Assembly: GCA_016934825.1 (NCBI GenBank)
Contig: JAFGSB010000158.1
Span: 66,842-130,841, forward strand
Length of the DNA: 64,000 nucleotides
Direction: 5' to 3'
DNA from: Candidatus Zhuqueibacterota bacterium
GTDB taxonomy: Bacteria; Zhuqueibacterota; Zhuqueibacteria; Residuimicrobiales; Krinioviventaceae
Below are positions 36,420 through 61,326 of the stretch, in pieces; within the stretch, counting starts at the first letter, position 1, and every line of letters starts with the position of its first letter. The position numbers and the translations under genes are program-made. Below the pieces are notes generated by a model. That model did not search any database and was not told the origin of the DNA. It saw only the letters and a program-made list of their open reading frames with translations.

Positions 36420-36424
36420 TTTAT

Positions 36425-36608
36425 AACGCCAGTGTTCGGTTAAATCCGAACACGCCACTCTAAACATATTATATTATTAAAATTATCAGATATGAAATCA
36501 TTATTTGACTTTTATGTAAAATTTGAATTGTTTTAATTACATTAATTGATTTTATTAAACTAATAAACCGGATCAGGCAGCGGTGTCCGGTTAACGGACA
36601 CCGCTGAA
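36425..36608 (+). repeat. About 190-bp hairpin-terminated intergenic repeat, copy A
   Basis: 5' CGCCAGTGTTCGGTTAAATCCGAACACGCCACTCTAAACATATTA ... 3' CCGGATCAGGCAGCGGTGTCCGGTTAACGGACACCGCTG. Homologous along its length to copies at 41836 and 49876. Confidence 0.7.
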
Positions 36609-36625
36609 TTTATAAGGATATTTTT

Positions 36626-37357: not shown

Positions 37358-37385
37358 AATTTTCTCATAAAAGTGAAAGGACGCA

Positions 37386-38276: not shown

Positions 38277-38290
38277 TAATCGGATAGAAT

Positions 38291-39145: not shown

Positions 39146-39174
39146 GGTCAACAATATAAACGGAAAGGTCACGA

Positions 39175-40404: not shown

Positions 40405-40422
40405 TCTATAAAGGAAATTTTT

Positions 40423-43112: not shown

Positions 43113-43270
43113 AACCGGTTCAACTCATAATTACAAACTAAATTGATCCATTTTATCTTTCAGCACAAAAGCAAAGTGGATGATACGACTGTTGATATGA
43201 AAATAAAATTGTTACAGGTATAATAAACGATATAAAATATTACATACAGGAAAAAGTTCGGGACAGCAAT

Positions 43271-44533: not shown

Positions 44534-44559
44534 ATAGAGAAAGAATTTAAACATACACA

Positions 44560-45351
44560 ATGAAAATCGTATTTTCGGAATATAAATCGGATTACGCAAA
44601 TTATATCTTCCCATATTCCATCTGGGCTTACCCGGAGGAGCATGAGACGCCTGCGGATTTATTTGACCGGGGCTTTTTACCCAATTCGCCCAACCTGGAC
44701 CGTTTTTACCTGTGCAGAAATGTTCGTGTTGATTTGGATCGATATGAACCTTCATCAGAGAACCGAAGGATTTTACGGAAAGGGGAGGGCATAGAACCGG
44801 GACTGGTGGAACGGCAGAATTTTGACTTTTCTCCGTCGTGGCGCGAGTTTTGTAAAAAGTACGCCGATGAAAAATTCGGCAAGGACGTGATGAGTTATGA
44901 CAGGCTCGACCGTATCATGAGCGCCCCAATCATTTCGCATGTGATGATATTTAAAGACCTAAAATCTCAAAAGGATATCGGTCTGGTGTTTTTATATATT
45001 GAAAAACCCCATGTTGCTTTTTATTATTATTCGTTCTATGATCTCAACTTTTTTCGGAACAGTCTTGGAATGTTTATGATGACGTCGGCAGTTGGAGAAA
45101 TGAAGAATAATGGTGTTCGGCATATTTATCTCGGATCGTGTTACAGCCGGAATGCCCTTTACAAAACCCAGTTCGAAGGCGTGGAATTTTTTAACGGGTT
45201 CAGATGGTCCGATAATATCAATGAATTAAAATACCTGATCGCCAGGGACTCCGATAAGGTGGACCATCATTTGCTTGAGTCCGACGATTTTACAAGCCGG
45301 TTTTATCCTGATGGAATTAATCCCGGAATACAGACCCGGCAAAACGATTAA
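44560..45351 (+). CDS. ATE/Bpt-family aminoacyl-tRNA-protein transferase-like protein
   Basis: VRVDLDRYEPSSENRRILRK matches the Bpt IRISVPDIELSRSQKRLLAK region; FYYYSFYD and HIYLGSCYSRNALYKTQF match the Bpt/ATE_C core. Confidence 0.6.
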   Translation: MKIVFSEYKSDYANYIFPYSIWAYPEEHETPADLFDRGFLPNSPNLDRFYLCRNVRVDLDRYEPSSENRRILRKGEGIEPGLVERQNFDFSPSWREFCKKYADEKFGKDVMSYDRLDRIMSAPIISHVMIFKDLKSQKDIGLVFLYIEKPHVAFYYYSFYDLNFFRNSLGMFMMTSAVGEMKNNGVRHIYLGSCYSRNALYKTQFEGVEFFNGFRWSDNINELKYLIARDSDKVDHHLLESDDFTSRFYPDGINPGIQTRQND

Positions 45352-45743: not shown

Positions 45744-47786
45744 TTGTTACCCGTAGTAACAACAATTGAAACAAAGTGTAAACGCTGTTATTCCTGTATA
45801 CGGAATTGTCCGGCAAAGGCGATAAAAGTCGAAAAAGGCCAGGCAATGGTCATAACCGAACGATGTATTGCCTGCGGTTATTGCGTCAAAGTGTGCCCGC
45901 AGAACGCCAAAAAAATACGTGATGATATTTTTCCCACCCTGAATTTATTATCTTCTAAAAGTCGAACAGTCGCCGTATTGGCGCCGTCTTTCCCGGCAGC
46001 TTTCCCGGATCTGGAACCCGGGAAAATTTTAACCGCGATACGGAAACTTGGATTCAGCCGCGTATATGACGTGGCGTATGGCGCTGATTTGATCAGTAAA
46101 GAATACAGGGAGTTATTGGACTCCAATATTATGCCGTTTATTATTTCCTCCCCCTGTCCCGCAGTTGTTAATTATATTGAAAAATACTATCCCATTTTGA
46201 CAATGTGTCTGGCCCCGATTGTATCTCCCATGATCGCTATCGGCAGGTACATCAGCAAATATATTAATCCTGATGCGTTTATTGTTTTTATCGGTCCCTG
46301 CATTGCAAAAAAGAAAGAAATGGGCGACCCGAAAGTCACAGATGTAATAAATCAGGTTTTGACTTTTGATGAATTGAAAGAGCTGTTTACGAAAAAAAAT
46401 ATACAACCCGGCAACGAATTACCGGGTGAATTTGACGGTCCGAATGCCCACCGCGGAAAACTGTTCCCGGTTTCCGGGGGATTGTTAAAAAGCGCCGAAT
46501 TAAATTATGATATTACGGATAATGATATCATTGTCACCGAGGGTAGGGATCGCGTTCTGGAGATTTTACAGAAAGCTTCCGAAGGTCAAATTGAGGCTAA
46601 GTTTTTGGACCTGCTTTTTTGTGAAGGATGTATCAACGGCCCGAAAATTGACAATAACCTTTCGGTGTTTGTAAAAAAAGACAAGGTGATTAATTATATT
46701 AACAGCCGGGTTGAAGAGGAAAAAGAATTTACCCTGGAAAATTTCGATTTAAGCGGGCTGGATCTTGGACGTAAATTTACCAATGAATATAAGGACGAGA
46801 AAATTCCGGATGAAAACGAAATAAAAGCAATACTGCAACTTACCGGAAAAAGTAATCCTGAAGATGAACTGAATTGCGGGGCCTGTGGTTATATATCCTG
46901 CCGTGAGAAAGCGATTGCCGTTTACCAGGGACTGGCCGAGGCTGAAATGTGCCTGCCCTATATGCTGGACAGACTGGAAAAAGTCCAAAATGAGCTGCAA
47001 AAGTCCAATATAGAACTAAAAGAATCCCTGGATACCCTGAAAAAGACCCAACAACAGCTTATTCAATCGGAAAGGCTGGCTTCAATTGGAGAATTGGCCG
47101 CGGGAGTGGCTCATGAATTGAACAATCCGTTAGGGGGAGTGCTAATTTTCAGCAGTCTGTTACTAGAACGAAAAAACATCAGCGATCCGGAATACAGGGA
47201 TTTGAAAAAAATTATTGAAGAGACCGAGCGCTGCAGGAAAATTGTGCACGGATTGTTGGACTTTTCCCGACAGTCCCGTTTGCAGGCCGCTATCGCCGAT
47301 CTAAACAAGATATTAATCAGCACCCTGACCCTGATTGAAAATCAGGTCCTGTTCCAAAATATAAAAATTGTCAGGGAACTGAATCCGGATATCCACAAAG
47401 TATTTGTTGATGTCGGCCAGATTCAGCAGATAGTATTAAATATTATTTTCAACGCGGCTGAAGCGATGGACGGAAAAGGTACGCTAATTGTAAAAACCGG
47501 TTTTTCCCCGGACAAAAAATTTGTACTTGCCAGCTTTAAAGATACCGGAACCGGAATATCGGCGGAACTGCTAAATAAAATTTTTGATCCTTTTTTTACG
47601 ACCAAACCCCCCGGCAAAGGTACAGGATTGGGCCTGTCAATATCTTACGGTATCATAAAAAAACACAAAGGCGATATTATTGTTGACAGCAAGCCGGGGA
47701 AAGGGACCACATTCACAATCAAATTGCCTTCCGCCCTGGTCATGCAGGATACATACCAATTGAATAATAAAATTGTACAAAAATAA
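45744..47786 (+). CDS. Sensory [FeFe]-hydrogenase-like (HydS-type H-cluster domain with two N-terminal 4Fe-4S clusters) fused to a histidine kinase
   Basis: 2x CxxCxxCxxxCP ferredoxin motifs; H-cluster motifs SSPCPAV (L1 variant), [10 protein letters not shown] (L2) and FCEGCINGP (L3). A coiled-coil is followed by the HisKA H-box [12 protein letters not shown] and HATPase_c N/G boxes (GTGLGLSI). TTG start. Confidence 0.8.
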
Positions 47787-47903
47787 AGTTCAATTTGTCA
47801 GTCATGTTTATGGATAAAAAATGGAATAGTTTATAACAGGATTCAATATCACATGCGTCCGGATAACGGACATCAAATATCCTGTATTCATAAAAGGATG
47901 ACA

Positions 47904-48245
47904 TCGATGGTATTGGAAACAATAGCAAAAAAGCTGTCATTAAAACCATTATATGAAAATATGAAAATCGATATCGAGATAAATGGTATTATTGCATCGG
48001 ATATTTTAAGCGATGTTATGGCAAGAGCGCAAAAAGGTGACTTGTGGATAACAAACCAAACCCATGTTAACGTTATTGCGATTATTTTTTTCAAAGGATT
48101 ATGCGGCGCCATTTTACCGGGCGGCCGGGAACTCGACAATGACGCTGCTGAAAAGGCCATTGAAAAAGGAATACCTGTTTTTATGTCCGACTTGTCCGCA
48201 TTCGATCTGGCGGGTCAGATCTACGGTATGGGTATCAGAGAATAA
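47904..48245 (+). CDS. DRTGG-domain-like small protein
   Basis: About 113 aa from the internal Met; fold-family similarity to DRTGG proteins that accompany sensory hydrogenases. Weak call. Confidence 0.4.
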   Translation, partial: SMVLETIAKKLSLKPLYENMKIDIEINGIIASDILSDVMARAQKGDLWITNQTHVNVIAIIFFKGLCGAILPGGRELDNDAAEKAIEKGIPVFMSDLSAFDLAGQIYGMGIRE

Positions 48246-48832
48246 AAAAAAATGAAAAAAATTTCACTTTTTTGAAAAAAAGACTTGCACATTTTATTTC
48301 GTTTGTTTATAATTAAATAAAGTTGTGAAAAAAAGTACAGCTTTTGTTTATTATCATACGGAACCGATTTTCTATACATCTACAGTGAGGGTCCTGACCT
48401 GCCTCCCCGATATTACGGCCCACTACTCTTGAGACGATACCAGGATATTGAATTAAACAATACCTTTGAGTTGTCTTTATTATGCTACGAGGATTGGGAC
48501 GGTGTTTACGTATATGAGTACGATCCGGAAAATGGTAAAGGAATGTTTTTCTATTTATTGTGATATTATAGCCGCTAATCACCGACTTTTTTTGAATAGG
48601 GATTACAAGTTATAACTTCAACAAGCAGAATAAAACCGGATTGATCGATTTCATTGTAAAATCCACAAGATTGCCCAATCAAATTTACTAAAATTTTTTT
48701 CAATCAGAAAATTTTTTGACATTGTTTTTGTTGATTTTGAAAATTTTAATGATGCATTAATTCATCATGTGTCCATGTTGAAGCGATTGTCATATTTAAG
48801 ATTTTGTATTGAAATTCGATGGAGGTGAAGTA

Positions 48833-49861
48833 ATGATTATCAAAGTGGACGAATTTATTGCGTTTTTATATAAATGTCAGGATAAGGGATTTTCCGGTTT
48901 TGATCAAATTATTTTACCCGTCAGGTCCGGGAATAAAGATTCGGATTCGTTTTATTTTGCGCAATTATCAAAATCAAAAGAATTTGATATAGACTCCTAC
49001 CGGACCGTCGATCCATTAAAAATGTTTTTCTTTCTTCCCCGTGAAAAAATTCTGCCGCAAACATTTGATAATACAAAACGCTTGATCGTCGGCGCAAAAG
49101 GTTGTGATATCAGGGCGCTGAAAGTGCTTGACAAGGCCATGATTAATGAAGATTTTGTCGATCCCGCTTATTTTTATTGGCGGCAAAATACCACAATCAT
49201 TAGCGCGGATTGTACCGACATTGCCCCGACCTGTCATTGTAATCTGGTAGACGGACATCCTTATGCCGAAGCTAATTTTGATCTGAATCTTTCCCGCTAT
49301 AAAGATGTTTATGTCGTCACATCGGGAAGTGAAAAGGGCGAGGAATTGCTGGAATTATTAAAAAAGGAATGTAAAGTTGAACCCGGGTCCCCAGAAATTT
49401 CTGCCAATATTCAGGAGCAAAGAAATAAAATAATCCGGTTATTGGAAAAACAAAATGAACAATACGAGAGAAATAATGAATTTGAAAAATTAAAACAAAA
49501 CCCGATGGATAATTGGTCAGATGAATCCAAAACATGTATCGGGTGCGGCGCCTGTACGAATATCTGCCCGACCTGTTATTGTCTTATTTTAAATGATGAA
49601 ACAAAAGCGGAAGAATTTGTCAAGGTCAGGAGCATGGATTCCTGCCAGTTAAACGGATATGCCCGCGTTGCCGGCGGAAGCACGCCCCGGCCTAAAATGT
49701 TCCAGAGATTTCGTAATCGTTATTTATGTAAATTTCTATTTATGAAAAGTAATTTTGATATGTTGGGCTGCACGGGGTGCGGAAGGTGTACGGAAGCATG
49801 CGCGGCCCAAATTGATTTTCGTCAGGTAGTCAATTCTGTTTTGAACGCGGTTGTCGATTGA
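48833..49861 (+). CDS. AsrA/HydB-like iron-sulfur subunit (anaerobic sulfite reductase A / sulfhydrogenase beta family)
   Basis: C-terminal CIGCGACTNICPTCYC and CTGCGRCTEAC clusters; typical length. Confidence 0.65.
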   Translation: MIIKVDEFIAFLYKCQDKGFSGFDQIILPVRSGNKDSDSFYFAQLSKSKEFDIDSYRTVDPLKMFFFLPREKILPQTFDNTKRLIVGAKGCDIRALKVLDKAMINEDFVDPAYFYWRQNTTIISADCTDIAPTCHCNLVDGHPYAEANFDLNLSRYKDVYVVTSGSEKGEELLELLKKECKVEPGSPEISANIQEQRNKIIRLLEKQNEQYERNNEFEKLKQNPMDNWSDESKTCIGCGACTNICPTCYCLILNDETKAEEFVKVRSMDSCQLNGYARVAGGSTPRPKMFQRFRNRYLCKFLFMKSNFDMLGCTGCGRCTEACAAQIDFRQVVNSVLNAVVD

Positions 49862-49875
49862 AAATAGATATGTAT

Positions 49876-50062
49876 AGCACTAGTGTCCGGTTAAACCCGG
49901 ACACGACATTCGTAACATATTATTTTATTAACGTTTTTGGATATGATTTCATTAATTGATATGGTTGAATAAAATTAAATTTTTCCAATTTTTAGCTTGA
50001 TTTTATTGAACTTGTAAACCGGATCAGGCAGCGGTGTCCGTTAACCGGACATCAGTGATGTT
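49876..50062 (+). repeat. About 190-bp hairpin-terminated intergenic repeat, copy C (inside the hydrogenase operon)
   Basis: 5' GCACTAGTGTCCGGTTAAACCCGGACACGACATTCGTAACATATTA ... 3' CCGGATCAGGCAGCGGTGTCCGTTAACCGGACATCAGTGATGTT. Confidence 0.7.
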
Positions 50063-50095
50063 ATAGTAGAATTTTTGAGGTAACAGGAGAAGATT

Positions 50096-50917
50096 ATGAA
50101 TAACCCGTATGAGGTCGTACCTGCCACGATATATGAAATTATTCAGGAATCTCCGTTAATTCGCACGTTACGTGTTCAACCGGAGAAACCCATACCGTTT
50201 AAAACCGGACAATTTATTGAACTGACCATACCCGGCATTGGCGAGGGTCCGTTTACTCCTTCATCATCACATTTCATCAGCGAAAATATGGATATTACCA
50301 TCATGAAAACCGGTTTTGTGACGGAATATGTTCACAGAGCTAAAGTCGGCGACAAAGTGGGTTTGAGGGGACCCTACGGTTCGCATTATCCGCTCGAAAA
50401 ATTCAAGGGTAAGGACCTTTTGATACTTGGCGGCGGCTGCGGACTCGCGCCGTTACGATCACTTTTTACGACCCTGCTGCATGAAGTGGAAGATTATAAC
50501 AGCATTACATTTTTCGCGGGAGCTAAAACGCCAAAGGATTGTATCTACAAGGATTCGGTGACGGATTGGAGAAAATATGACAATGTCACGTTTATGCGCA
50601 GTGTCGATGTTGTTCCCGATGGCGAAGAGTGGGACGAGGAAGTTGGGCTGGTTACTTCGCTGTTATCCAAACTGGATATTGATACGGCTGTAAATCCGGC
50701 GGTGGTTTGCGGACCGCCTGTTATGATGAAGTTTGGTACAATGGATTTGATCAAATGCGGTTTCCGGGAAGAAAATATATATCTGTCGATGGAAAAGAAA
50801 ATGTACTGCGGTTTCGGCCAATGCCGGCATTGCGTGATGGGCGAGTTTTATGCCTGCAAAGACGGCCCCGTGTTTACTTATGCCCGGATAAAGAATGAGG
50901 AGGATATTTGGGAATGA
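50096..50917 (+). CDS. AsrB/HydG-like FAD/NAD(P)-binding oxidoreductase subunit with C-terminal [2Fe-2S]
   Basis: FNR-like fold (GQFIEL, LILGGGCGLAPLRS) and CGFGQCRHCVMGEFYAC cluster as in PyrK/AsrB/sulfhydrogenase gamma. Confidence 0.8.
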   Translation: MNNPYEVVPATIYEIIQESPLIRTLRVQPEKPIPFKTGQFIELTIPGIGEGPFTPSSSHFISENMDITIMKTGFVTEYVHRAKVGDKVGLRGPYGSHYPLEKFKGKDLLILGGGCGLAPLRSLFTTLLHEVEDYNSITFFAGAKTPKDCIYKDSVTDWRKYDNVTFMRSVDVVPDGEEWDEEVGLVTSLLSKLDIDTAVNPAVVCGPPVMMKFGTMDLIKCGFREENIYLSMEKKMYCGFGQCRHCVMGEFYACKDGPVFTYARIKNEEDIWE

Positions 50918-51417
50918 AAAAACTTTTTATTGATGTTCCGGCCCTGATCAATTCCGGCGCAGCAGTCGATCAAATTAAATGCGAATATCTTTTTCACAGA
51001 AAAAATAACGGCGCTTTTTCCCTGCTGGAGGTGGCGCAATTTGCTTCATATTGCCGGCAGTGTACGGAATCGTTCTGCGTCTCGGCATGCCCGGTGGAAG
51101 CCCTGGAACGGCAGGAAACCGGAACCATCAAACGGCATAATATGCGATGTGTGGGGTGCAAAAGTTGTGTACTGGCCTGCCCGTTCGGAACGATTTTCCC
51201 CGAGGTCATTAATTATGTGACCTGTCAGTGCGATTTGTGTTTGAATCAGTTGGAGCAGGATCCTGACTATGTTCCGCTGTGTGTGAAAACCGCACCCGCT
51301 CAAACCTTTGCGATGAAAGAGTTAACGGAAGAAGACCCGCAGCAGCATATCTATTTTTCGGGTAAGCATCTGGCAATTAAAAGTCCGAACTGGCGGCACA
51401 AGGAGGGCAAGTCATGA
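50908..51417 (+). CDS. 4Fe-4S dicluster electron-transfer subunit (HycB/HyfA-like)
   Basis: CRQCTESFCVSACP and CVGCKSCVLACP plus a CDLC motif. Confidence 0.7.
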   Translation: MGMKKLFIDVPALINSGAAVDQIKCEYLFHRKNNGAFSLLEVAQFASYCRQCTESFCVSACPVEALERQETGTIKRHNMRCVGCKSCVLACPFGTIFPEVINYVTCQCDLCLNQLEQDPDYVPLCVKTAPAQTFAMKELTEEDPQQHIYFSGKHLAIKSPNWRHKEGKS

Positions 51418-52343
51418 ACATAGAATATGTGTTTTTCCTGCTCATTTTTCCCGGTCTGTTATTTACCGGTATTTTGGGACTGACCGTCGGCTGGGTTGAC
51501 CGGAAGGTCTCCGCGCGGTTCCAGTTTCGTGTCGGTCCGCCCTTTTTACAGAATTTTAATGATTTTTTCAAATTGCTTGGCAAAGAAACGATCATCGTCA
51601 AAGAAGGAGTACATTCATTATTTATTGCGGCTCCTTTTATCGCTTTTGCCGTGATCGTTCTGATTTCAACCATGATCGGCGTCGCTTTGTTCTTCAATAA
51701 AGGCTTCGGCGGCGACCTGTTTGTGATCATGTATTTGTTAATGGTTTATTCCGTTATGATCATATTAGGCGGATCGTCTACAGGAAACGTTTATTCCAGC
51801 ATTGGCGCCGCAAGAGAAATGAAACTGTTGCTGGCCGATGAACTGGCTTTTATATTTGTGTGTATGGTGCCCGTCGTTAAAGCGGATTACCAGTTGAGTC
51901 TTGAACAGATTTTGAACTGGCAAAGTATTGAAGGCGCTTTTATAGGTTCCGTATCCGGTGTGATCGCCTTTATTGTCGGTATCCTGTGTATCCAGGCAAA
52001 AATGACGCTGCCGCCGTTCCATATCCCGGAAGCGGAAACGGAACTCGTAGAGGGGCCATTTATGGAATACAGCGGGCCGCCGCTGGCTTTCTGGAAATTA
52101 AACCATTTTATGCTGTATGTTGTCCTGCCCTTTTTACTGGTGCTGTTATTTCTGGGCGGTTTCAATCTGCACGGTCTGGGTATACTTTGGGCCGTTTTAA
52201 AATATTTTTTGATTGTCGTGGTTATGATCATTATAAAAAATACCAATCCGAGGATCAGGATTGATACGGCATTAAATTTTTTCTGGAAATACGCCGCGCT
52301 GTTGGGTTTTATAGCTTTAATCTTAGCCGTGTTAGGAGTTTAA
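51414..52343 (+). CDS. Group 4 hydrogenase membrane subunit (NuoH/HycD/EchB family)
   Basis: 309-aa 8-TM protein with complex-I subunit-1 family signature regions. Confidence 0.75.
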   Translation: MNIEYVFFLLIFPGLLFTGILGLTVGWVDRKVSARFQFRVGPPFLQNFNDFFKLLGKETIIVKEGVHSLFIAAPFIAFAVIVLISTMIGVALFFNKGFGGDLFVIMYLLMVYSVMIILGGSSTGNVYSSIGAAREMKLLLADELAFIFVCMVPVVKADYQLSLEQILNWQSIEGAFIGSVSGVIAFIVGILCIQAKMTLPPFHIPEAETELVEGPFMEYSGPPLAFWKLNHFMLYVVLPFLLVLLFLGGFNLHGLGILWAVLKYFLIVVVMIIIKNTNPRIRIDTALNFFWKYAALLGFIALILAVLGV

Positions 52344-52344
52344 T

Positions 52345-52764
52345 ATGGGATGGTATAATAAAAGACTGGCAAAATCAATATGGGTGTTTCATCTAAGTGC
52401 GTCCCCGTGTAATAATTGTGATATCGAAATACTGGACCTGCTCACACCAAAATATGATCTGGAACGGTTCGGGATCAAGCTCGTGGGTTCTGTCAGGCAC
52501 GCGGATGTGATCCTGTTGAGCGGTATCATCAATCAAAAAGTCGCCCCCAAAGTTACACATTTATATTCGCAGGCGCCGAAACCTGTTTTTGTCGTCGGCG
52601 TGGGAACATGTCCTGCCGGCGGCTGTTGCTTTAACGACAGCTACAATAAAGTGCCCTGCCGAGAGGACGTCATTCCCATTGATATGTATATACCCGGTTG
52701 TCCGCCCAAACCGGAAGCCATGATCGAGGGCGTTGTAAAACTTGTGGAGGTTCTGAATGGATAA
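52345..52764 (+). CDS. [NiFe] hydrogenase small subunit (NuoB/HycG/EchC family)
   Basis: Cys ligands for the proximal cluster: CNNCD, GTCPAGGCCF and GCPPKPEA. Confidence 0.85.
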   Translation: MGWYNKRLAKSIWVFHLSASPCNNCDIEILDLLTPKYDLERFGIKLVGSVRHADVILLSGIINQKVAPKVTHLYSQAPKPVFVVGVGTCPAGGCCFNDSYNKVPCREDVIPIDMYIPGCPPKPEAMIEGVVKLVEVLNG

Positions 52765-53188
52765 AACCAAAGAATTCATCGAGGCTATGGGTGATAAAAT
52801 ATATAAAAAGATCGAGAAAAAAGGCCGCCTTTATTTCGAGGTGGATAATGAAAATTTACATACCGTGGTAGAGTATTTATTTCATAAAATGGGGTGCCGG
52901 TTATCCACGGCAACGGCGATGGAAATGTATCACGGCATAGAGGTGCTGTATCATTTTTCACACGACGAATCCGGCCAGTACTTTTGTCCGCGTATGGTCA
53001 TGACCGATCTGAAAAATCCGAAAATGAAATCGATTACGCCCATCATCAAAGGCGCGGAGTGGATTGAAAGGGAAATGTGTGAATTTTGGGGCATCGAATT
53101 TGAGGGCCATCCGCGTCCGGAACGGCTGCTGTCCAGAGAGCACCCCCAACAACTTGACAAACCATTACGATTCAGGAGGAATTCATGA
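52757..53188 (+). CDS. NuoC/EchD-like 30-kDa subunit
   Basis: NuoC-family fold; positioned between the NuoB-like and NuoD-like genes. Confidence 0.7.
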   Translation: MDKTKEFIEAMGDKIYKKIEKKGRLYFEVDNENLHTVVEYLFHKMGCRLSTATAMEMYHGIEVLYHFSHDESGQYFCPRMVMTDLKNPKMKSITPIIKGAEWIEREMCEFWGIEFEGHPRPERLLSREHPQQLDKPLRFRRNS

Positions 53189-54372
53189 ACAAGAATACCA
53201 TACCGGTTGGCCCATTCCATCCGTTGCTCGAAGAAGCCGAATATTTTAACCTGGTCGTTGATGGCGAAACCGTCGTTGATATTGATATTGATATCGGCTG
53301 GATGCACAGAGGGCACGAGTTTATCTCGGAACAAAAAACGTTTACCCAGTCCATTTATCTGGTGGAACGGATCTGCGGTATCTGTTCCACGTCACACCCG
53401 CTGGCATGCGTGCACGCGATAGAGGATGTCGATAATACCGAAATCCCATTGCGGGCGCGATATATCCGCACACTGATCGGAGAACTGGAACGCATTCACA
53501 GTCATCTGCTCTGGCTTGGCCTGGCAGGGCATTTTATCGGTTACGATACCCTGTGGATGTGGTCCTGGAAATACAGGGAGCCGGTTCTGCAAATGTTTGA
53601 GCTCATTTCCGGCAACCGCAATCATTACAACATGTTGAGAGTCGGGGGCGTCTCGAGGGATGTGGATCCAGAAAAAATTCCCGGCCTGACAGATGTATTG
53701 GATATGCTCGACAAAAAACTGATCATGATCGCCAAGGCCGCCAATGATGACCCGGTCCTCAGATCGCGATTGAAAGGAGTCGGCGTTTTAACCCATAAAG
53801 ACGCCCTCGATTATTGCGCTGTGGGTCCGACTTCCCGGGCATCCGGAGTCCCGGCGGATGTGCGCAAGTCCGAGGATATAGACGCATACAGCTTGGTCGA
53901 TTTTGATGTCATTGTGCTGGAAAACGGCGATGTCTATGATAAACTAATTGTCCGCGTGCTGGAAATGCTGGAATCCACAAAAATTTGCCGTCAATGTCTG
54001 GAAAAATTAAAAAAGGTAAAAGGTCCGATATTAAACAATGTGAAGAATATATCTGCAGGAGAAGGCATCGGCCGGTATGAAGCGCCGCGCGGCGAAGTGT
54101 TTCATTATGTACGGACCGACGGCACAAACAGGCCAATCCGGCACAAGGTTCGGGCCCCCAGCTATGTCAATATTCCCACTTACGCGGCGTCATGTGTGGG
54201 TCTGCCGATTGCCGATGTGCTCATCACAACTGCATCGGTCGATCCATGTTATTGTTGTACCGAACGCTCCCTGAAGGTCGTCAATAAAAATAAACAACCG
54301 TATCAAATAGACTTATTAAAGTTGTCCCGCGAAAAGACCGAACGGATCAGGAGGGAAACATATGGAGGTTAA
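53185..54372 (+). CDS. Group 4 [NiFe] hydrogenase large (catalytic) subunit (NuoD/EchE/MbhL-like)
   Basis: N-terminal RICGICSTSH (L1 CxxC) and C-terminal DPCYCCTER (L2 DPCxxCxxR) Ni-Fe ligand motifs. Confidence 0.85.
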   Translation: MNKNTIPVGPFHPLLEEAEYFNLVVDGETVVDIDIDIGWMHRGHEFISEQKTFTQSIYLVERICGICSTSHPLACVHAIEDVDNTEIPLRARYIRTLIGELERIHSHLLWLGLAGHFIGYDTLWMWSWKYREPVLQMFELISGNRNHYNMLRVGGVSRDVDPEKIPGLTDVLDMLDKKLIMIAKAANDDPVLRSRLKGVGVLTHKDALDYCAVGPTSRASGVPADVRKSEDIDAYSLVDFDVIVLENGDVYDKLIVRVLEMLESTKICRQCLEKLKKVKGPILNNVKNISAGEGIGRYEAPRGEVFHYVRTDGTNRPIRHKVRAPSYVNIPTYAASCVGLPIADVLITTASVDPCYCCTERSLKVVNKNKQPYQIDLLKLSREKTERIRRETYGG

Positions 54373-56182
54373 TGTTGTGCTGATTTATCTGGCCGCAATC
54401 CCCTTTGTGATTGCATTGTTGAATATTTTATTGCCGCCCGTTATGCAAAAAATTCTTACCCTGTTGGGTTTAATATATCTACTGCGGCTAACGGTACTCC
54501 TGTATTCCGGCGTGGCGGAAAATTTTATTTTGTTCGGGGAGACAGTATTTTCTGTTGACCGGTTGGGTCTGTTTGTGTTTACTTTTATCCAGGTTTTGAG
54601 TTTTATTATTTTCATATTTTCACTGCAGGGTCTGGATAAAAGAATCGAAAAAAAGTTTCTTATATTATATCCCATGACCGTTTCATTTTGCAACGGCGTC
54701 GTTTTGAGCGAACACGTCTTTAGTTTTTTGATTTTTTGGGGATTGTCGGGTCTGGCGCTGTATTTATTTTGCATGCTTGGGCTGACAAAAGGAACGCCGC
54801 AAACGGCAAAGAAAACTTTTATTTTAATCGGCGGGAGCGATGCTTTTTTAATTTTAGGAATGGTCAGTATCTGGTTTTTGAAACCGGGATCAAGCTGGTC
54901 GTTAATCGATCTGCACATACCGTTAACCGGTGAACTTTCTGTTGTCGCGTTTATCTGCCTGGTAATCGCTGCGTTTGCCAAAGCCGGGGGATTTCCGTTC
55001 CATACATGGGTTCCCGATTTCAGCCAGGACGCGCCCATTGAAAGTGCGGCATTCCTGCCGGCATCTTTGGATAAATTACTCGGCATTTATCTTTTGGCCC
55101 GGATAATGACGCAATTATTTGAGGTAACGGTCACCGTGAACCTTGTCATCATTACTCTTGGCGCGATGACGGTTATTTTTGCCGTCATGATGGCCATGAT
55201 ACAACACAGCGGCAGAAAACTGTTAGGGTACCACGCGGTCAGCCAGGTGGGGTATATGATCATGGGCGTCGGCAGCGGCGGCGCACTGGCGTTCGCGGGC
55301 GGGTTGTTCCATATGATCAATCATACAATTTATAAATCCAATCTGTTTTTAACGCTCGGCTCCGTGGAAAAACAGACCGGCACAAGCGACCTGGAGAACC
55401 TGGGCGGTCTGGGTAAAAAAATGCCGGTCACATTTATAATGGCCATGATCGGCGCGTTCGCCATATCCGGTATTCCACCGTTTAACGGATTTTTCTCCAA
55501 GTGGATGATTTATCAGGGTTTGCTTGAACTGGCCGGAAGTATGAGCAAGGTCCAGCAGGTATGGCTGCTTGTCTGTTTGATCCTGGCGGTTTTCGGCAGC
55601 GCGCTTACCCTGGCAAGTTTTTTGAAATTTTTACATTCGATCTATCTGGGAAAACGGCCTGCAAAGTATGATCATATAAAAGAAACAAAGCCCAATCAGT
55701 GGCTCTCAACCGGTTTGCTTTCCGCGCTATGTGTTGTATTTGGTTTGTTTGCGGTCAGTATTCCGTTAAAACGACTGATTTATCCCGTTACCATGGAATT
55801 GGGATATCCTTTACCCGACTTTTTGGGTGATTATAATCCGCAGTTGTTATTCCTGATGTTTGCCCTTGCATTTATTGCGGGATTCATTATTTACCTGTTT
55901 ACTAAAAATGTTCGTTACGACCAGAATTATCTCGGAGGTATGCCGGCCCTGGAAAAGTACAGGGTTGCCGGTACCGAATTTTATAATGAGATCCGCAACA
56001 TGAAACCTTTAAAAGCGATTTTCGACGCCGCCGGGAAAAAATATTTTGATATATATGATCTGGGAACCCGGTTTACTTTTTCGGTTTCCGGGCTCTTTCA
56101 ACGCGGCCATCCGGGACAGTTGCAGTTATATCTTTTATATATAATGGCGGGCGTTTTAATATTTATTTTGCTTGTTCATTAA
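54362..56182 (+). CDS. Antiporter-like membrane subunit (NuoL/MrpA/HyfB family)
   Basis: 606 aa, about 16 TM, proton-pumping complex-I ND5-family core. Confidence 0.8.
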   Translation: MEVNVVLIYLAAIPFVIALLNILLPPVMQKILTLLGLIYLLRLTVLLYSGVAENFILFGETVFSVDRLGLFVFTFIQVLSFIIFIFSLQGLDKRIEKKFLILYPMTVSFCNGVVLSEHVFSFLIFWGLSGLALYLFCMLGLTKGTPQTAKKTFILIGGSDAFLILGMVSIWFLKPGSSWSLIDLHIPLTGELSVVAFICLVIAAFAKAGGFPFHTWVPDFSQDAPIESAAFLPASLDKLLGIYLLARIMTQLFEVTVTVNLVIITLGAMTVIFAVMMAMIQHSGRKLLGYHAVSQVGYMIMGVGSGGALAFAGGLFHMINHTIYKSNLFLTLGSVEKQTGTSDLENLGGLGKKMPVTFIMAMIGAFAISGIPPFNGFFSKWMIYQGLLELAGSMSKVQQVWLLVCLILAVFGSALTLASFLKFLHSIYLGKRPAKYDHIKETKPNQWLSTGLLSALCVVFGLFAVSIPLKRLIYPVTMELGYPLPDFLGDYNPQLLFLMFALAFIAGFIIYLFTKNVRYDQNYLGGMPALEKYRVAGTEFYNEIRNMKPLKAIFDAAGKKYFDIYDLGTRFTFSVSGLFQRGHPGQLQLYLLYIMAGVLIFILLVH

Positions 56183-56216
56183 TTATAGATTCAATACGAA
56201 TAGAGCGGAGGAAATA

Positions 56217-56759
56217 ATGCCAATAGAAACCTGGTTAACGTTTGTTCTCGGGTTTATGATAATCGGATCGATCGTCGCGCTGGAATTGAAGGATATTTTG
56301 TCTTCGATCATCTCAATCGGGGTTGTCGGACTTGGGGTATCGGTCGCTTTTCTTTTTCTTCAGGCCCCGGATTTGGCGATTGTACAGTTCTTATTTGAGA
56401 TATTTGCGATTATCATTCTGGTCAAAGTCTTTATTAAAAAAGATTATCACTATGAAGAACCGTCAAGAATAAACAAAATGCTAATCGGTGTGACCGTTAT
56501 TACACTTGCCGTCATATTTATTTTCAGTATATCCGTGTTTAAAAATATACCGCCTTTTGGCGAGCCTTTACTGCATACGTCGAAATATTATCTTGAAAAT
56601 GGCGCCGGTGATACGGGAGCGGCAAACCTGGTCAGTTCCATTATTCTTGATTACAGGGCTTATGATACACTTGGAGAAGTAACGGTGTTATTTACCGCTA
56701 TTCTGGGTTCTGTAACGGTTCTACGATTGAGTATCCGAAAAAATAAAAATAAGGAATAA
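56217..56759 (+). CDS. MrpB/MnhB-like antiporter subunit
   Basis: VSSIILDYRAYDTLGE matches the MnhB motif. Confidence 0.7.
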   Translation: MPIETWLTFVLGFMIIGSIVALELKDILSSIISIGVVGLGVSVAFLFLQAPDLAIVQFLFEIFAIIILVKVFIKKDYHYEEPSRINKMLIGVTVITLAVIFIFSISVFKNIPPFGEPLLHTSKYYLENGAGDTGAANLVSSIILDYRAYDTLGEVTVLFTAILGSVTVLRLSIRKNKNKE

Positions 56760-56761
56760 AA

Positions 56762-57211
56762 ATGAAACGGCAGACAGGTATGACTTTGATTGTCAAAACC
56801 ATAACGCGGCTAACGGTATGGTTAATTATTCTTTACGGTTTTTATATTATCTTGCACGGCCATTTAACCCCCGGCGGCGGATTTGGCGGCGGCGTTATCA
56901 TTGCGCTGGCTTTTCTGAATGTATTGCTGGCATACGGACGTGAATTTACAGACAAATGGTTAAAGATTTCATTCCTGGAAAAGCTCGAGTCTTTAAGTAT
57001 TATCCTCTTTTTACTATTAGGGATAACGGCGCTATTGGCCGGTAAATTGTTCCTGGAAAATTTTATCGGTAAAGGGCATTTATATCATTTGTTGAGCGCC
57101 GGCACGATACCCGTTTTTAATATAATTATCGGAATTAAAGTGGCCATGTCTTTATTTCTGGTTATCTGGATTCTGTCCGGTTTGAAATTGGAGGAAGGAG
57201 AGGAGGCATGA
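56762..57211 (+). CDS. MnhB-domain membrane subunit (MbhE-like)
   Basis: HLTPGGGFGGGVIIA motif typical of MnhB-domain proteins. Confidence 0.6.
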   Translation: MKRQTGMTLIVKTITRLTVWLIILYGFYIILHGHLTPGGGFGGGVIIALAFLNVLLAYGREFTDKWLKISFLEKLESLSIILFLLLGITALLAGKLFLENFIGKGHLYHLLSAGTIPVFNIIIGIKVAMSLFLVIWILSGLKLEEGEEA

Positions 57212-57543
57212 TTATTTATCTTTTGTGTTTTGTACTTTTTCTGGTCGGGATTTATGGCGTTATAACCAAAAGGGACCTGGTCAAGATCATCCTTTCGCTC
57301 GCCATTATGGGATATTCGGCCAATCTTTTTTTAATTTTGTTCGCCTATAAAAAATCGGCGTTATATCCCATTTTGGAAAAAGGGGTGGACGTCCCGATGG
57401 TCGATCCGCTGCCGCAGGCCCTTGTTCTGACTTCGATTGTTATTGAATTGGGTACTACAGCCCTGCTTGTTTCCCTTGTTGCTAAGTTGTTTCAAAAATA
57501 CAGGACATTTGACATTACTAAAATAAGGAGGCTGTTAGGATGA
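57208..57543 (+). CDS. MrpC/NuoK-like subunit
   Basis: 111 aa, 3 TM, NuoK-like. Confidence 0.7.
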   Translation: MIIYLLCFVLFLVGIYGVITKRDLVKIILSLAIMGYSANLFLILFAYKKSALYPILEKGVDVPMVDPLPQALVLTSIVIELGTTALLVSLVAKLFQKYRTFDITKIRRLLG

Positions 57544-59015
57544 TCCTCCCATTTTATATCATTATACCTTTATTTACGGCATTTCTCATTTCGTTGATCG
57601 GCGGTAAAAAAGATTATGCGGCTGTGATTTTTTCCGTAATATCTGTTTTTTCGCTGGTTTGTCTGTCATTATATGGTTTTTTTATCGGCGGCCGGCAAAT
57701 CCTGGTGTACAGGATGAGCGCATGGGATATCCCTGTCGGCATAAATCTGGTTCAGGACTCTTTGTCATCATTTGTACTGGTTATGATCAGCATCATTTCA
57801 TTAACCTCGGTCCTGTTTTCAATCCAGTATATCCGGCATTTATCCCAAGATTGGAAATACTATGCTCTATTTATGCTGTTGTTGTCCGGTATGAACGGTG
57901 TCGTGCTGACCGGCGACCTGTTCAATCTGTTTGTTTTTATGGAGATCGCCCTGATAGCGGCTTTTTCCCTTGTCGCTTATGGCGGCAGGGCGGAGGAGTA
58001 TGAAGCGGCTTTTAAATATGCCGTGATGGGTTCCGTCTCATCAACGTTGATACTGGTCGGAATTGCGGTAACTTATTGCTCGACATCGACATTAACGCTG
58101 GCGCTCATCGCCGAACGATTACCCGCGCTAAATACCAAAGTCGTTTACTGGATCGGCGGTCTTTTTATGGCAGGTTTCGGACTTAAAACCGCGGCCATGC
58201 CGTTTCACGCCTGGCTCCCGGACGCGCATTCTTCCGCACCGGCTCCGATATCTTCCATGCTTTCCGGTGTGCTGATTAAGGCGCTTGGAATTTATGTTTT
58301 GATACGAATTTTCTTTAACGTGTTGGGCGCGCCGGAATTATTTATGCGTATTTTTATGGTGCTCGGGACTGTTTCCATCATAATCGGCGTTTTCCTGGCC
58401 ATCGGTCAATGGGATATGAAAAGACTGCTGGCGTATCACAGTATCAGCCAGATCGGTTATATATTACTGGGCCTGGGACTGGCAACGCCGCTTGGCATAT
58501 TGGGCGCAATATTTCATATGTTCAATCACGCTATATTTAAAGGATTATTGTTTTATAATGCCGGCGCTGTTGAAATGGCCCTCGGAACGCGTAATTTAAA
58601 GAACCTGGGAAATATTTCAAAATTACTGCCGGTCACATCCGGCACGTCAATGATCGCGTCATTGTCCATTTCCGGGATTCCGCCTTTTAACGGATTTTTC
58701 AGTAAACTTATTATTATCATTGCTGCGATTAAATCCGGGCATCCTGTATACGCATTTCTGGCCGTTGTGGGAAGTATTCTGACACTGGCTTCATTTATGA
58801 AGGTGCAAAGATACGGCTTTCATGGCGACAGGGTGATTGAAACAAAGCAAACCAATGTTGGCCTGGCCATGAATGGGGCAATGATCACGCTTGCCGTATT
58901 ATGTCTGGTAACCAGTTTGATGATCGTGCCCGGTATAAAGGAGAGTATTTTAGACCCGGTCATTGCGGTCATTTTGAATAAAACCCAATACATTCAAATG
59001 GTTATGGGGAGGTGA
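57540..59015 (+). CDS. MrpD/NuoM-N-like antiporter subunit
   Basis: 491-aa ND2/4 family core, including the WLPDAH motif. Confidence 0.8.
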   Translation: MILPFYIIIPLFTAFLISLIGGKKDYAAVIFSVISVFSLVCLSLYGFFIGGRQILVYRMSAWDIPVGINLVQDSLSSFVLVMISIISLTSVLFSIQYIRHLSQDWKYYALFMLLLSGMNGVVLTGDLFNLFVFMEIALIAAFSLVAYGGRAEEYEAAFKYAVMGSVSSTLILVGIAVTYCSTSTLTLALIAERLPALNTKVVYWIGGLFMAGFGLKTAAMPFHAWLPDAHSSAPAPISSMLSGVLIKALGIYVLIRIFFNVLGAPELFMRIFMVLGTVSIIIGVFLAIGQWDMKRLLAYHSISQIGYILLGLGLATPLGILGAIFHMFNHAIFKGLLFYNAGAVEMALGTRNLKNLGNISKLLPVTSGTSMIASLSISGIPPFNGFFSKLIIIIAAIKSGHPVYAFLAVVGSILTLASFMKVQRYGFHGDRVIETKQTNVGLAMNGAMITLAVLCLVTSLMIVPGIKESILDPVIAVILNKTQYIQMVMGR

Positions 59016-59524
59016 CGATGAAAATAGAAATGAAAAGCAGGATCGTCGTTTTTGTTTTGGCTTATTTGGTCTGGCTGGCTCTGACACATATCGGGGATAT
59101 CCAGGAAGTCATTGCGGGATTTATCATCTCGATTGTGGTTGCCCTGATTGCCGGTAAATTTTTTATTACCACAAAAAAACAAAAAGGGACCGTACGCCGG
59201 ATTATTGCGGCCGTAATATATATATTCAAATTCCTCTGGGAAATGATCAAAGCCAATTTTCACGTTGCCTATATTGTGATACACCCGATGTTACCGATTA
59301 AACCCGGGATCGTCAAGATCAGGACTAGATTAAGTAAAGACTCCGCGATCACTATACTGACAAATTCAATCACCCTGACGCCCGGCACATTAACCGTTGA
59401 TTTAAATCCTGATAAAAAAGAGATATACGTTCACTGTATAGATGTTATATCTGCCGATGTGGAAGAAAATACACGGAATATCGGTAACAGGTTTGAAAGT
59501 ATTTTAACGGAGGTTTTCGAATGA
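59012..59524 (+). CDS. MrpE/MnhE-like subunit
   Basis: Size, topology and position in the Mrp module. Confidence 0.65.
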   Translation: MTMKIEMKSRIVVFVLAYLVWLALTHIGDIQEVIAGFIISIVVALIAGKFFITTKKQKGTVRRIIAAVIYIFKFLWEMIKANFHVAYIVIHPMLPIKPGIVKIRTRLSKDSAITILTNSITLTPGTLTVDLNPDKKEIYVHCIDVISADVEENTRNIGNRFESILTEVFE

Positions 59525-59859
59525 AACTGTTAAAATGGTTTTTAGGATTCATTTTTATAGCCGCATTTATATATTACAATTTTTTTATATATGATGGAAA
59601 ATTACTTTTCAGGCTCATAAATATAAGTCTTTTTTGTTCGTTGTTTGTACTGTTCAGGGTCATATTCGGCCCGACAGCGGCCGACAGAATCGTTGCGGTT
59701 GATATTTTGGGTATATTGATTGTGGGTTTGCTGGCGTTATTGGGCTTGTATTACAAACAGGGATTTTTTATGGATGTCGCTTTAATCTGGGCGTTGTTAA
59801 GCTTTGTCGCATCACTTGCCTTTTCAAAGATTCTGGAAGGGAGGCAGTTAGATGATTAA
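59521..59859 (+). CDS. MrpF/MnhF-like subunit
   Basis: 112 aa, 3 TM. Confidence 0.6.
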   Translation: MKLLKWFLGFIFIAAFIYYNFFIYDGKLLFRLINISLFCSLFVLFRVIFGPTAADRIVAVDILGILIVGLLALLGLYYKQGFFMDVALIWALLSFVASLAFSKILEGRQLDD

Positions 59860-60193
59860 GGAAACGATTGGTATGATATTTATATATATCGGCATCGGGT
59901 TTGATTTTTTCGGTGTCCTGGGCCTGGTGCGTTTACCGGATGTGTATAACCGGCTGCAGGCGGCGACGAAATGCGTAACGTTCGGTTCCGCCGGTATTAT
60001 GTTCGGCGTTTTTATTTTAAACGGATTTAACAGTTTTGGATTTAAAGCGTTGCTGGGTATCGCTTTTATATTTCTGACGTCCCCGGTCGCGGCGCATGTC
60101 ATTGCCCGGGCCGCGCATCGCAGCGGCGTACCGCTGGCAAAACAAACGGTCGTCGATGATTATGCTAAAGATAACGATTTAAAAGATTTATAA
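59852..60193 (+). CDS. MrpG/MnhG-like subunit
   Basis: GIGFDFFGVLGLVRLPDVYNRLQAATK is the canonical MnhG motif. Confidence 0.8.
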   Translation: MIKETIGMIFIYIGIGFDFFGVLGLVRLPDVYNRLQAATKCVTFGSAGIMFGVFILNGFNSFGFKALLGIAFIFLTSPVAAHVIARAAHRSGVPLAKQTVVDDYAKDNDLKDL

Positions 60194-60254
60194 TTATCTG
60201 CCGGAATTCAGTACATATGTACTGCCAAAGACAGAGAATTTATGGAGGCTTGTT

Positions 60255-60857
60255 ATGTATCTGCCGAAGATACGGGAAATAAAAGAAGCATTGACATCAT
60301 TTTTTACACCGCCTTATACAACCGGATTTCCGGCCGAGCCTTATACGGCGCCGGAACAATACCGGGGCAGGCCGAAATACGATCAGGAGTTTTGCATCGG
60401 CTGCGGAACCTGCGCGCAGGTGTGTCCCACTCAGGCTATCACTATAACTGATAACCCGGAGAAAAAAACTCGTACATTGACTGTCGATTATTGTTTATGC
60501 ATGAATTGCGGACAATGTGAAGAAAAATGTATTACCCAAAAGGGGATTCATTTAACGAATGATTATTCTTTGGCAATTATGGACAAAAATGATCCGAATG
60601 TGTATGAATCGATTGAACGTGAACTGGTTTTATGTGAAAGCTGCGGCGGGGTTATCGCATGCAGACCGCATCTTTTGTGGATCAAGGAGCGGCTTGGCGC
60701 CAAAGCTTACGCTCATCCGAATTTACTGCTGGAAACTCAAAAGCAGTTTTTTCAGGTCGAGGATTCCAAAGTTAAAGCCAGAATACGGCGCGAGGATCAA
60801 ATAAAACAAGTCTGTCCCAAATGCCGGAATTTAATTGTAGTGGCCGATGAATTTTAA
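60255..60857 (+). CDS. 2x[4Fe-4S] ferredoxin subunit (NuoI/MbhN-like)
   Basis: CIGCGTCAQVCP and CMNCGQCEEKC motifs. Confidence 0.7.
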   Translation: MYLPKIREIKEALTSFFTPPYTTGFPAEPYTAPEQYRGRPKYDQEFCIGCGTCAQVCPTQAITITDNPEKKTRTLTVDYCLCMNCGQCEEKCITQKGIHLTNDYSLAIMDKNDPNVYESIERELVLCESCGGVIACRPHLLWIKERLGAKAYAHPNLLLETQKQFFQVEDSKVKARIRREDQIKQVCPKCRNLIVVADEF

Positions 60858-61326
60858 ACAGTTTTCACAAGAGTTGGCGTGCTATAAACCCGAAGAAATT
60901 ATATTTGTCGGACTGGGTAACGAACTGTGCGGCGATGATGCGGCCGGCCTTATATTTATTGATAAACTCAAAGATGTACCGGATTTTACCGGTTCCATTT
61001 TTATCACCGCCCGGACAAATCCGGAAAATTTTTTACAAAAGATACTCGACTCAACCGGTAAAGTTATTGTTTTTATAGATGCCGCCCAATTTAACGGAAA
61101 ACGCGGAGAAATATCTTGGATCGATGCCGATAATCTGGAACTATTGAGTATCAGTACACATGCATATTCATTGAGAATGGTGGAGCAGTATTTATTAAAC
61201 TACCGTCACTTTGATTTTAAATACCTGGGGATCGATTCGCTGCACATGAATTTGGGTGATCAGTTATCTTCACAAGTATTAACCAAAATAGCCGTTTTTT
61301 TTGCTCATGTCAGGAACTGCAATTAA
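60847..61326 (+). CDS. hycI: [NiFe] hydrogenase maturation endopeptidase (HycI/HyaD family)
   Basis: FVGLGNELCGDDAAGL N-terminal metal-binding motif of hydrogenase maturation proteases. Confidence 0.7.
   Translation: MNFKQFSQELACYKPEEIIFVGLGNELCGDDAAGLIFIDKLKDVPDFTGSIFITARTNPENFLQKILDSTGKVIVFIDAAQFNGKRGEISWIDADNLELLSISTHAYSLRMVEQYLLNYRHFDFKYLGIDSLHMNLGDQLSSQVLTKIAVFFAHVRNCN

Follow-up and report, generated by a model that had tools for sequence, protein, structure and literature searches.

A putative [FeFe]-hydrogenase-type sensor kinase encoded beside a group 4 [NiFe] hydrogenase operon in a Candidatus Zhuqueibacterota bacterium

How anaerobes sense molecular hydrogen (H2) is an open question, and work on the "sensory" [FeFe] hydrogenases has so far been limited to metal domains taken on their own (TmHydS and TamHydS). 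A 64,000-nucleotide stretch of DNA from a Candidatus Zhuqueibacterota bacterium (GenBank assembly GCA_016934825.1, contig JAFGSB010000158.1, positions 66,842 to 130,841 of the forward strand), here termed the window, contains a gene for an [FeFe]-hydrogenase-type domain fused to a histidine kinase, and this gene lies upstream of an operon for a hydrogenase of another metal class, a [NiFe] enzyme of group 4. This raises the question of whether the fused protein reports on H2, and whether its signal is directed to the neighbouring enzyme. The reading favoured here, to which we give a probability of roughly 0.6, is that the protein is a soluble cytoplasmic sensor histidine kinase whose input is a non-catalytic HydS-type group C [FeFe] domain, and that it responds to H2 and tunes the neighbouring hydrogenase.

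The sensor kinase pointed out in a preliminary description of this DNA is confirmed. NCBI holds an identical protein, listed as "4Fe-4S binding protein" from a candidate division KSB1 bacterium. The gene and the parts of its product are as follows, in window coordinates.

45744..47786, plus strand: sensor kinase gene, an open reading frame with a TTG start, 680 amino acids (aa)
45768..45908, plus strand: N-terminal ferredoxin-like domain, aa 9-55 (Pfam Fer4/Fer4_10), with two CxxCxxCxxxC sites (C12, 15, 18, 22; C41, 44, 47, 51)
45963..46643, plus strand: H-domain, Fe_hyd_lg_C, aa 74-300 (Pfam, alignment to solved enzymes, structural match)
46146..46160, plus strand: L1 variant, S135-S-P137-C138-P, aa 135-139 (translation and alignment to solved [FeFe] hydrogenases)
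46290..46319, plus strand: L2, I183-G-P-C186-I-A-K189-K-K-E192, aa 183-192 (translation and alignment)
46617..46643, plus strand: L3, F292-C293-E-G-C296-I-N-G-P300, aa 292-300 (translation and HMMER alignments)
46875..46952, plus strand: C-terminal cluster site, C378-x2-C381-x4-C386-x16-C403 (sequence and Pfam PF04060 'FeS', aa 376-405)
46953..47171, plus strand: single continuous helix, aa 404-476, from the last cluster ligand to His457, codon 47112-47114 (DSSP on the AF2 model)
47088..47732, plus strand: kinase core, HisKA (aa 449-510) and HATPase_c (aa 557-663), with N, G1, F and G2 boxes (Pfam)

The match to Fe_hyd_lg_C is strong (171.9 bits against a curated cut-off of 22.1, E 2.5e-50), and the kinase boxes are all readable: H457 in AHELNNPL, N566 and N570, D600xGxG604, FDPFFTTK and G626-630. 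The named kinases nearest to the core are AtoS, ZraS and CckA. By its sequence, the protein carries binding sites for two ferredoxin-type [4Fe-4S] clusters, an additional site of the Cx2Cx4Cx16C type and an intact ATP-binding domain. Its highest hydropathy over 19 residues is only 1.67 and is located within the H-domain, and there is no membrane segment; the protein is therefore taken to be soluble.

Structural modelling agrees with the domain assignments. The AF2 model of the sensor kinase has a pLDDT of 82.3 and a pTM of 0.59. Foldseek matched it to DdH, CbA5H, CpI and TmHydA with E values of 1e-19 to 1e-22 over ~360-400 columns, at a root-mean-square deviation of ~3.5 A. The target-normalised TM score of the H-domain match is up to 0.69, and the kinase core of ZraS is matched at a TM score of 0.82. 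The model shows helix 404-476 as an unbroken rod of 73 residues that starts right after the last cluster ligand and passes His457. No Pfam PAS match is present in the 680-aa protein. Because of this, and because residues 404-476 form one helix in the model, the sensor kinase is not of the PAS-bearing TmHydS (M2f) sub-type. The proposal of a HydS-type (group C/D-like) H-domain fused directly to a complete kinase, with no PAS domain, is therefore borne out by the Pfam and motif evidence. The domains described earlier were all found, but the exact Cx2Cx4Cx16C motif, a hallmark of groups C and D (defined in PMC8163306), had been overlooked.

The motifs of the H-domain bear on whether it is an enzyme or a sensor. 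In L1, SSPCP aligns on TSCCP, such that Pro137 occupies the position of the proton-relay cysteine and the cluster ligand Cys138 is retained; the replacement of the relay cysteine, noted earlier, holds. L2 reads GPCIAKKKE and aligns on MPCxAKKxE, with Gly184 at the M353 position and Cys186 as the ligand. The position of Met497 is taken by Leu291. With SSPCP, Gly184 and Leu291, the protein departs from all three signatures of catalytic group A enzymes (TSCCP, Met353, Met497). A replaced relay cysteine has been documented before in putative sensory enzymes (PMC10055695). In HydDB group C as a whole, the relay position has Cys in only 17% of members and Pro in ~10%, and the M353 position has Gly in ~51% (PMC10055695). 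The window protein combines the sensor-type traits: a replaced relay cysteine (Pro137), a small residue at M353 (Gly184), a two-cluster N-terminal domain and the C-terminal Cx2Cx4Cx16C site.

L2 and L3 are present as first quoted, but a peculiarity of L3 had not been mentioned, namely a contraction by one residue. FC.EGC aligns with a gap against xCPEGC or ACPGGC of the solved enzymes, which gives a C-x-x-C spacing in place of the canonical C-x-x-x-C. The relatives of the window protein have FCxGC or CCEGC at L3; the PAS-type HydS relatives that were examined have CEGGC, with the canonical spacing. A description of the contracted loop was not found in the searchable literature.

Conservation was assessed twice, in 32 relatives (48-71% identity) and in a larger set of 117 full-length cluster representatives. 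An alignment with characterised HydS and CpI had been suggested as a check of the ligands; alignment to solved [FeFe] hydrogenases places all four H-cluster cysteines (C138, C186, C293 and C296) on ligands of those enzymes; all four, Cys138 and the two of the contracted L3 included, are invariant in the 117 relatives. The relay position in the larger set is Pro in 112, Ala in three, Ser in two and Cys in none. G184, C186, K189, K190 and E192 are invariant there, and the residues that hold the 2Fe subcluster (A80-P81-S82, K189, E192 and F241, the Phe before GG) are 99-100% conserved; the equivalence of these pocket residues in CpI numbering was taken from published motifs. The eight ferredoxin cysteines are kept in 116-117 of the 117, and C378, C381, C386 and C403 of the C-terminal cluster in every one. 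Both sets show L291 and F292 as invariant or nearly so, and H457, N566, N570, D600, G602, G604 and G626-630 as invariant. The strict conservation of cluster ligands, 2Fe-pocket residues and kinase boxes speaks for an H-cluster pocket that has been maintained and a kinase that is active.

Gene neighbourhoods show that the link to hydrogenases is no accident of this one locus. Thirty loci with full-length fused homologues, in addition to the window itself, were examined down to 40% identity (locus labels, such as L087, are ours). Hydrogenase genes adjoin the sensor in all 30. In 20 of these, at 40-51% identity, the sensor is [FeFe]-linked: the gene lies directly 3′ of HydA with NuoE and NuoF, or the neighbourhood is cut off by contig ends. 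The order is NuoE-NuoF-HydA-sensor kinase-response regulator-response regulator(PAS)kinase, and [FeFe] enzymes of group A3 account for most of the 30 loci. HydA upstream of these sensors is canonical, with TSCCPGW, MPCTxKKFE and ACPGGC. The loci are from Ignavibacteria, Bacteroidota, Planctomycetota including Ca. Kuenenia, Desulfobacterota, Elusimicrobiota and Bdellovibrionota. The Ca. Kuenenia locus reads Rex-hydC-hydB-hydA-sensor-response regulator-response regulator/kinase-hydE-hydG-aspartase-like-hydF. The aspartate ammonia-lyase/fumarase-like gene between hydG and hydF (L021 11159-12583 in Ca. Kuenenia) also occurs in a distant [FeFe] cluster (L090 15973-17394).

The closest relatives, at 56-71% identity, adjoin group 4 [NiFe] operons. 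There are nine such loci besides the window, with two operon types. The sensor lies upstream of the same operon type as in the window in L001, L002, L087 and the P0054 locus, and downstream of the second type in L003/4, L085, L086 and L091. At one locus (L089) it precedes a group 3b-like [NiFe] enzyme. The fullest layout, found in L087 and the P0054 locus, consists of sensor kinase, response regulator, response regulator-PAS-kinase, DRTGG-like gene, Rex and operon. The window, L001 and L002 are without the response regulator, hybrid kinase and Rex of this layout and have no detectable remnant of them; to judge by gene content, the window locus is a reduced version of the L087/P0054 arrangement. 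Most relatives have receiver genes next to the sensor, and these adjacent partners are mainly receiver-only proteins together with a response regulator-PAS-kinase hybrid. A DNA-binding NtrC-type regulator is present at one locus only, L085, after a second sensor paralogue. Tandem paralogous sensor kinases with receiver genes between them follow the group 4 operon in L085 (6340-12049), L086 (7612-11986) and L091 (~7410-11980).

In a neighbour-joining tree built from 31 sequences and 408 columns of the sensor module, the group-4-linked sensors are monophyletic (100/100). They branch within the kinase-fused clade (87/100), the remaining branches of which are [FeFe]-linked. Tree and neighbourhoods document a change of genomic partner: as far as the sequences tell, the lineage descends from sensors located beside bifurcating [FeFe] hydrogenases and was re-wired to [NiFe] operons. 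A conserved association of this sensor with group 4 and group 3b [NiFe] operons was not found described in the searchable literature.

The module of ferredoxin-like domain with two Fer4 sites, H-domain and Cx2Cx4Cx16C site is also found with other partners. It is fused to a sigma-54 activator with a helix-turn-helix (HTH) domain (L024), to GGDEF-HD (L026) and to PAS (L025, L042). Since its outputs are so varied, it behaves as a sensor module. The L024 protein (9974-12208, Peptococcaceae bacterium CEB3) would be a one-component sigma-54 activator with HTH_8, and it shares the contracted C-x-x-C L3. The L026 protein (9971-12385, Desulforadius tongensis) combines the module with a GGDEF and an HD domain, i.e. 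a cyclic di-GMP output.

Downstream of the sensor gene, the window shows the following features.

47907..48245, plus strand: gene for a DRTGG-like small protein of 112 aa, from the likelier ATG start at 47907 (listed open reading frame start, 47853)
48246..48832, plus strand: spacer before the hydrogenase operon, 587 bp with the operon start at 48833 (563-587 bp by choice of start)
48716-48744, plus strand: second promoter-like site, within the spacer
48833..61326, plus strand: group 4 [NiFe] hydrogenase operon (Pfam and NCBIfam)
53185-54372, plus strand: [NiFe] large subunit, with RICGICSTSH (N-terminal RxCGxCxxxH) and DPCYCCTER (C-terminal DPCxxCxxR)

The operon encodes a sulfhydrogenase beta/gamma-like pair, a Fer4_11 protein, NuoH-, NuoB- and NuoC-like subunits, Mrp-type membrane subunits, a ferredoxin and a HycI-like protease. 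With its large-subunit motifs and this set of proteins, it encodes a bona fide group 4 [NiFe] hydrogenase, as had been proposed, and this is of Mbh/Mrp type. Its first gene more probably starts at ATG 48833 (MIIKVDEF, with GGAGGT upstream) than at 48809, and homologues support this choice. The pair at the operon head (48833-51417; the remainder is 51414-61326) consists of a ShyB/HydB-like Fer4_22 protein and an AsrB/HydG-like FAD/NAD protein, and suggests NAD(P)H coupling of the membrane-bound hydrogenase. The same pair heads the group 3b-like cluster in L089.

The small gene that follows the sensor gene was described earlier as DRTGG-like. Its own match to Pfam DRTGG is weak (E ~1e-3, below the Pfam cut-off), but orthologues at the same position in relatives match DRTGG. 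Orthologues are present in L001, L003/4, L086, L087, L091 and the P0054 locus. The protein is 53% identical to that of a 125-aa gene at the matching position in the KSB1 locus L087, and on this basis its start was set at ATG 47907. The searchable literature yielded nothing useful on DRTGG with hydrogenase, or on KSB1 with HydG.

A leader of 560 bp had been noted before the operon; the spacer is real, but it measures 587 bp with the likelier start. At its beginning is a promoter-like block, TTGCAC-17-TATAAT (~48285-48313), followed by an imperfect inverted repeat, AAAGTTGTG-N8-TACAGCTTT. Both are conserved in two relatives, whose spacers (L002 12044-12569; L001 12470-12999) were compared with that of the window. 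Around 150 nucleotides after the block, GGGNC...GNCCC could form a short stem; the three sequences show a single apparent compensatory change in it, which is too little to count. A structured leader RNA or riboswitch in 48246-48832 was rejected for want of evidence: there is no Rfam match at the gathering threshold, E<=10 gave only noise, and folding does not surpass that of shuffled sequences (z score +0.89). A sigma-54 promoter was likewise rejected, as the sole candidate in the spacer (48495) has two mismatches and is without the -12 GC, and matches across the window are fewer than in shuffled sequences. The idea that the spacer is a decayed Rex, response regulator or hybrid-kinase gene was rejected too, since tblastn with the L087 proteins found nothing there. 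The L002 spacer has two Rex-box-like sites (12096 and 12168, two mismatches each) that flank the promoter-like block, and these are degenerate in the window.

How might such a protein work? The 2Fe subcluster made by HydEFG would be in place, and H2 would be bound but turned over only slowly. Binding would alter the redox or conformational state of the metal domain, and the change would be transmitted via helix 404-476 to His457, which would shift the balance between kinase and phosphatase activities. The phosphoryl group would then pass to partner receivers, which in relatives are a small response regulator and a response regulator-PAS-kinase hybrid, and once an NtrC-type activator; in this genome the partners would be located elsewhere. 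The output would adjust production of the adjacent H2-evolving Mbh/Mrp-type [NiFe] hydrogenase, most simply as product feedback, and the DRTGG-like protein would be a conserved accessory. H2 sensing is plausible by analogy with TmHydS and TamHydS. A further proposal goes beyond this and is tentative: that an H2 sensor was re-wired from an [FeFe] to a [NiFe] enzyme, such that in this KSB1-type clade the H-cluster protein serves only as a sensor for product feedback on an energy-conserving Mbh/Mrp-type enzyme, HydEFG are kept for the regulator alone and the C-x-x-C spacing of L3 is tolerated.

Several points weigh against the proposed H2-responsive sensor. The kinase-fused members are uncharacterized experimentally, and H2 sensing is thus an extrapolation from TmHydS and TamHydS. 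We know of no enzyme with C-x-x-C spacing in L3 for which H-cluster binding has been shown. The absence of an adjacent response regulator, noted earlier, extends to the whole 64-kb window, where no open reading frame of at least 80 aa has a receiver domain or a sigma-54 AAA+ motif; there is also no sigma-54 promoter in the spacer. The earlier suggestion of H2-dependent transcriptional control is supported in part: the hydrogenase link recurs in all 30 relatives, but neither H2 as the signal nor control at the level of transcription is established. The operon has its own conserved promoter-like block, and in relatives (L087 and the P0054 locus) a Rex gene lies directly before the operon; control by NADH/NAD may therefore dominate. 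The C-terminal cluster of TamHydS shows no redox change with H2 (PMC13104023), and the proposed relay through that cluster may be wrong in detail. Finally, genes for the maturases HydE, HydF and HydG are absent from the window, and whereas hydE/F/G are found at <=10 kb in 10 of the 20 [FeFe]-linked loci, none of the 10 [NiFe]-linked loci has them within this distance.

The maturase pattern is what would be expected of a different sensor, a Nar1/NARF-like redox or Fe-S sensor kinase that has only [4Fe-4S] clusters and no 2Fe subcluster, and reads the ferredoxin or NAD(P)H pool, or damage by O2 or CO. Its signal would be the substrate side of the neighbouring ferredoxin- or NAD(P)H-linked hydrogenase and not H2. 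The contracted L3 and the loss of the proton relay fit such a protein, the N-terminal ferredoxin-like domain is suited to electron exchange with ferredoxin, and relatives often have a gene for the NADH sensor Rex nearby. In another study, H-cluster motifs were hardly to be found in some HydDB 'C1' proteins (PMC11406978). In the 117 relatives, however, the positions that matter solely to the 2Fe subsite (Lys and Glu in L2, A-P-S, and Phe ahead of GG) are invariant, the clade branches from within sensors whose genes stand between hydA and hydE/G/F, and a lack of maturase genes within 10 kb is poor evidence for a whole genome. We rate this the main rival, but the strict conservation of the residues specific to the 2Fe subsite disfavours it. 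Both a sensor with [4Fe-4S] clusters alone and a signal from the substrate side in place of H2 are considered unlikely.

It may also be asked whether adjacency means regulation at all. The kinase could be an orphan that controls something else, or nothing at this locus, with the operon's own promoter under Rex-type or other control. The conserved promoter-like block is located 3′ of the DRTGG-like gene, the L002 spacer has its two Rex-like boxes, L087 and the P0054 locus have a Rex gene directly ahead of the operon, and the window is without a response regulator. On the other side, the window's own spacer (48246-48832) has no Rex operator site with <=3 mismatches, and the pairing of sensor and hydrogenase is kept in all 30 relatives, which reach down to 40% identity and include hydrogenases of three classes and both types of group 4 operon. 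An adjacency so widely kept is hard to explain without a functional link, and mere proximity appears quite improbable. Still more improbable, to the point of being very remote, is a working hydrogenase, whether slowly H2-evolving or H2-consuming, in which the kinase part is secondary. TmHydS and TamHydS do keep low catalytic activity, and a metabolic role has been raised for group C1 enzymes (PMC8542988), but the relay cysteine is lost in all 117 relatives, Met353 and Met497 are replaced, the full kinase core is invariant and the module is fused to varied signalling outputs. The H2-responsive sensor kinase thus stays the preferred reading.

The remainder of the window has features of separate interest. 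Directly upstream of the sensor gene, at 42054-45351, is a trio of genes for a Rce1-like CAAX protease, a PurD-like ATP-grasp protein and an arginyltransferase-like protein. The ATP-grasp protein scores well below the purD cut-off. The trio is syntenic in L001 (5947-9755) and has no evident hydrogenase link. A lysine riboswitch (33760-33941, plus strand; Rfam RF00168, 114 bits) precedes a lysine biosynthesis operon (34023-41739) with genes for an M20 peptidase, aspartokinase with ACT, DapB, DapA, DapF, an aminotransferase and a LysA-like decarboxylase. In a single open reading frame of 1566 aa at 27934-32634 (plus strand), a complete AcrB/RND transporter (aa 15-1031) is joined at its C-terminal side to an ABC-type ATPase domain (aa 1297-1440). 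Such a fusion is unusual, and a sequencing read-through may be the cause; a normal RND pump gene (24855-27944) precedes the open reading frame.

The locus is of moderate interest in that its metal domain is joined by a single helix to a standard histidine kinase. The simplest readout would be autophosphorylation with and without H2, which makes the sensing hypothesis testable. The clade linked to group 4 [NiFe] operons would also indicate that a single type of sensor can serve hydrogenases of another metal class, a point that bears on how H2 metabolism is read in uncultured fermenters such as KSB1. Should the domain have no 2Fe subcluster, it would instead represent a bacterial redox sensor of Nar1-like kind.

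The protein itself, by its sequence, belongs to a described class, the "putative sensory" group C [FeFe] hydrogenases, and the architecture is not as unusual as the preliminary description presented it; HydDB and genome papers that came after it already include group C enzymes linked or fused to a kinase. HydDB defines [FeFe] group C1 as "histidine kinase-linked (putative)... may sense H2" (PMC5037454). A kinase-containing Caldithrix-type protein has been counted as C3 (PMC11406978), and a 2024 paper gave the name "BfuT", with the label C3, to a kinase-containing protein downstream of bfuA. Kinase-fused group C forms have also been described in Elusimicrobia, beside trimeric group A enzymes and with Rex nearby. 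The kinase-fused relatives of this family, at 40-49% identity in Ignavibacteria, Bacteroidota, Elusimicrobiota, Planctomycetota and Desulfobacterota, share the domain order and motifs of the window protein, except that L3 reads CCEGC in these and FCEGC in the window. They differ in their neighbours, which are trimeric group A3 [FeFe] enzymes with response regulator and response regulator-(PAS)-kinase genes, whereas the window has a group 4 [NiFe] enzyme and no response regulator genes. It is this change of neighbours from [FeFe] to [NiFe] that appears to be new.

The two characterized sensory proteins each share part of these properties. TmHydS of Thermotoga maritima (group C, M2f) resembles the window protein in its two N-terminal [4Fe-4S] clusters, the missing relay cysteine, Gly at M353 and the C-terminal Cx2Cx4Cx16C; however, it ends in a PAS domain, signals via separate proteins and has Ala where the window protein has Pro. 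TamHydS of Thermoanaerobacter mathranii (group D, M2e) is similar in having no PAS domain, Leu at M497 and the same C-terminal cluster motif, and comparable clusters contain DRTGG and HATPase-type genes, but it has no fused output domain and Ser is at M353. The proposed regulatory logic is that of the [NiFe] regulatory hydrogenase HoxBC/HupUV with the kinase HoxJ/HupT and the regulator HoxA/HupR (HydDB group 2b), where a crippled hydrogenase acts as H2 sensor and a histidine kinase coupled to it controls hydrogenase genes. The two systems are non-homologous: there the sensor is a [NiFe] protein separate from its kinase, whereas in the window the kinase itself carries the [FeFe]-type domain, and its gene lies beside those of a [NiFe] enzyme.

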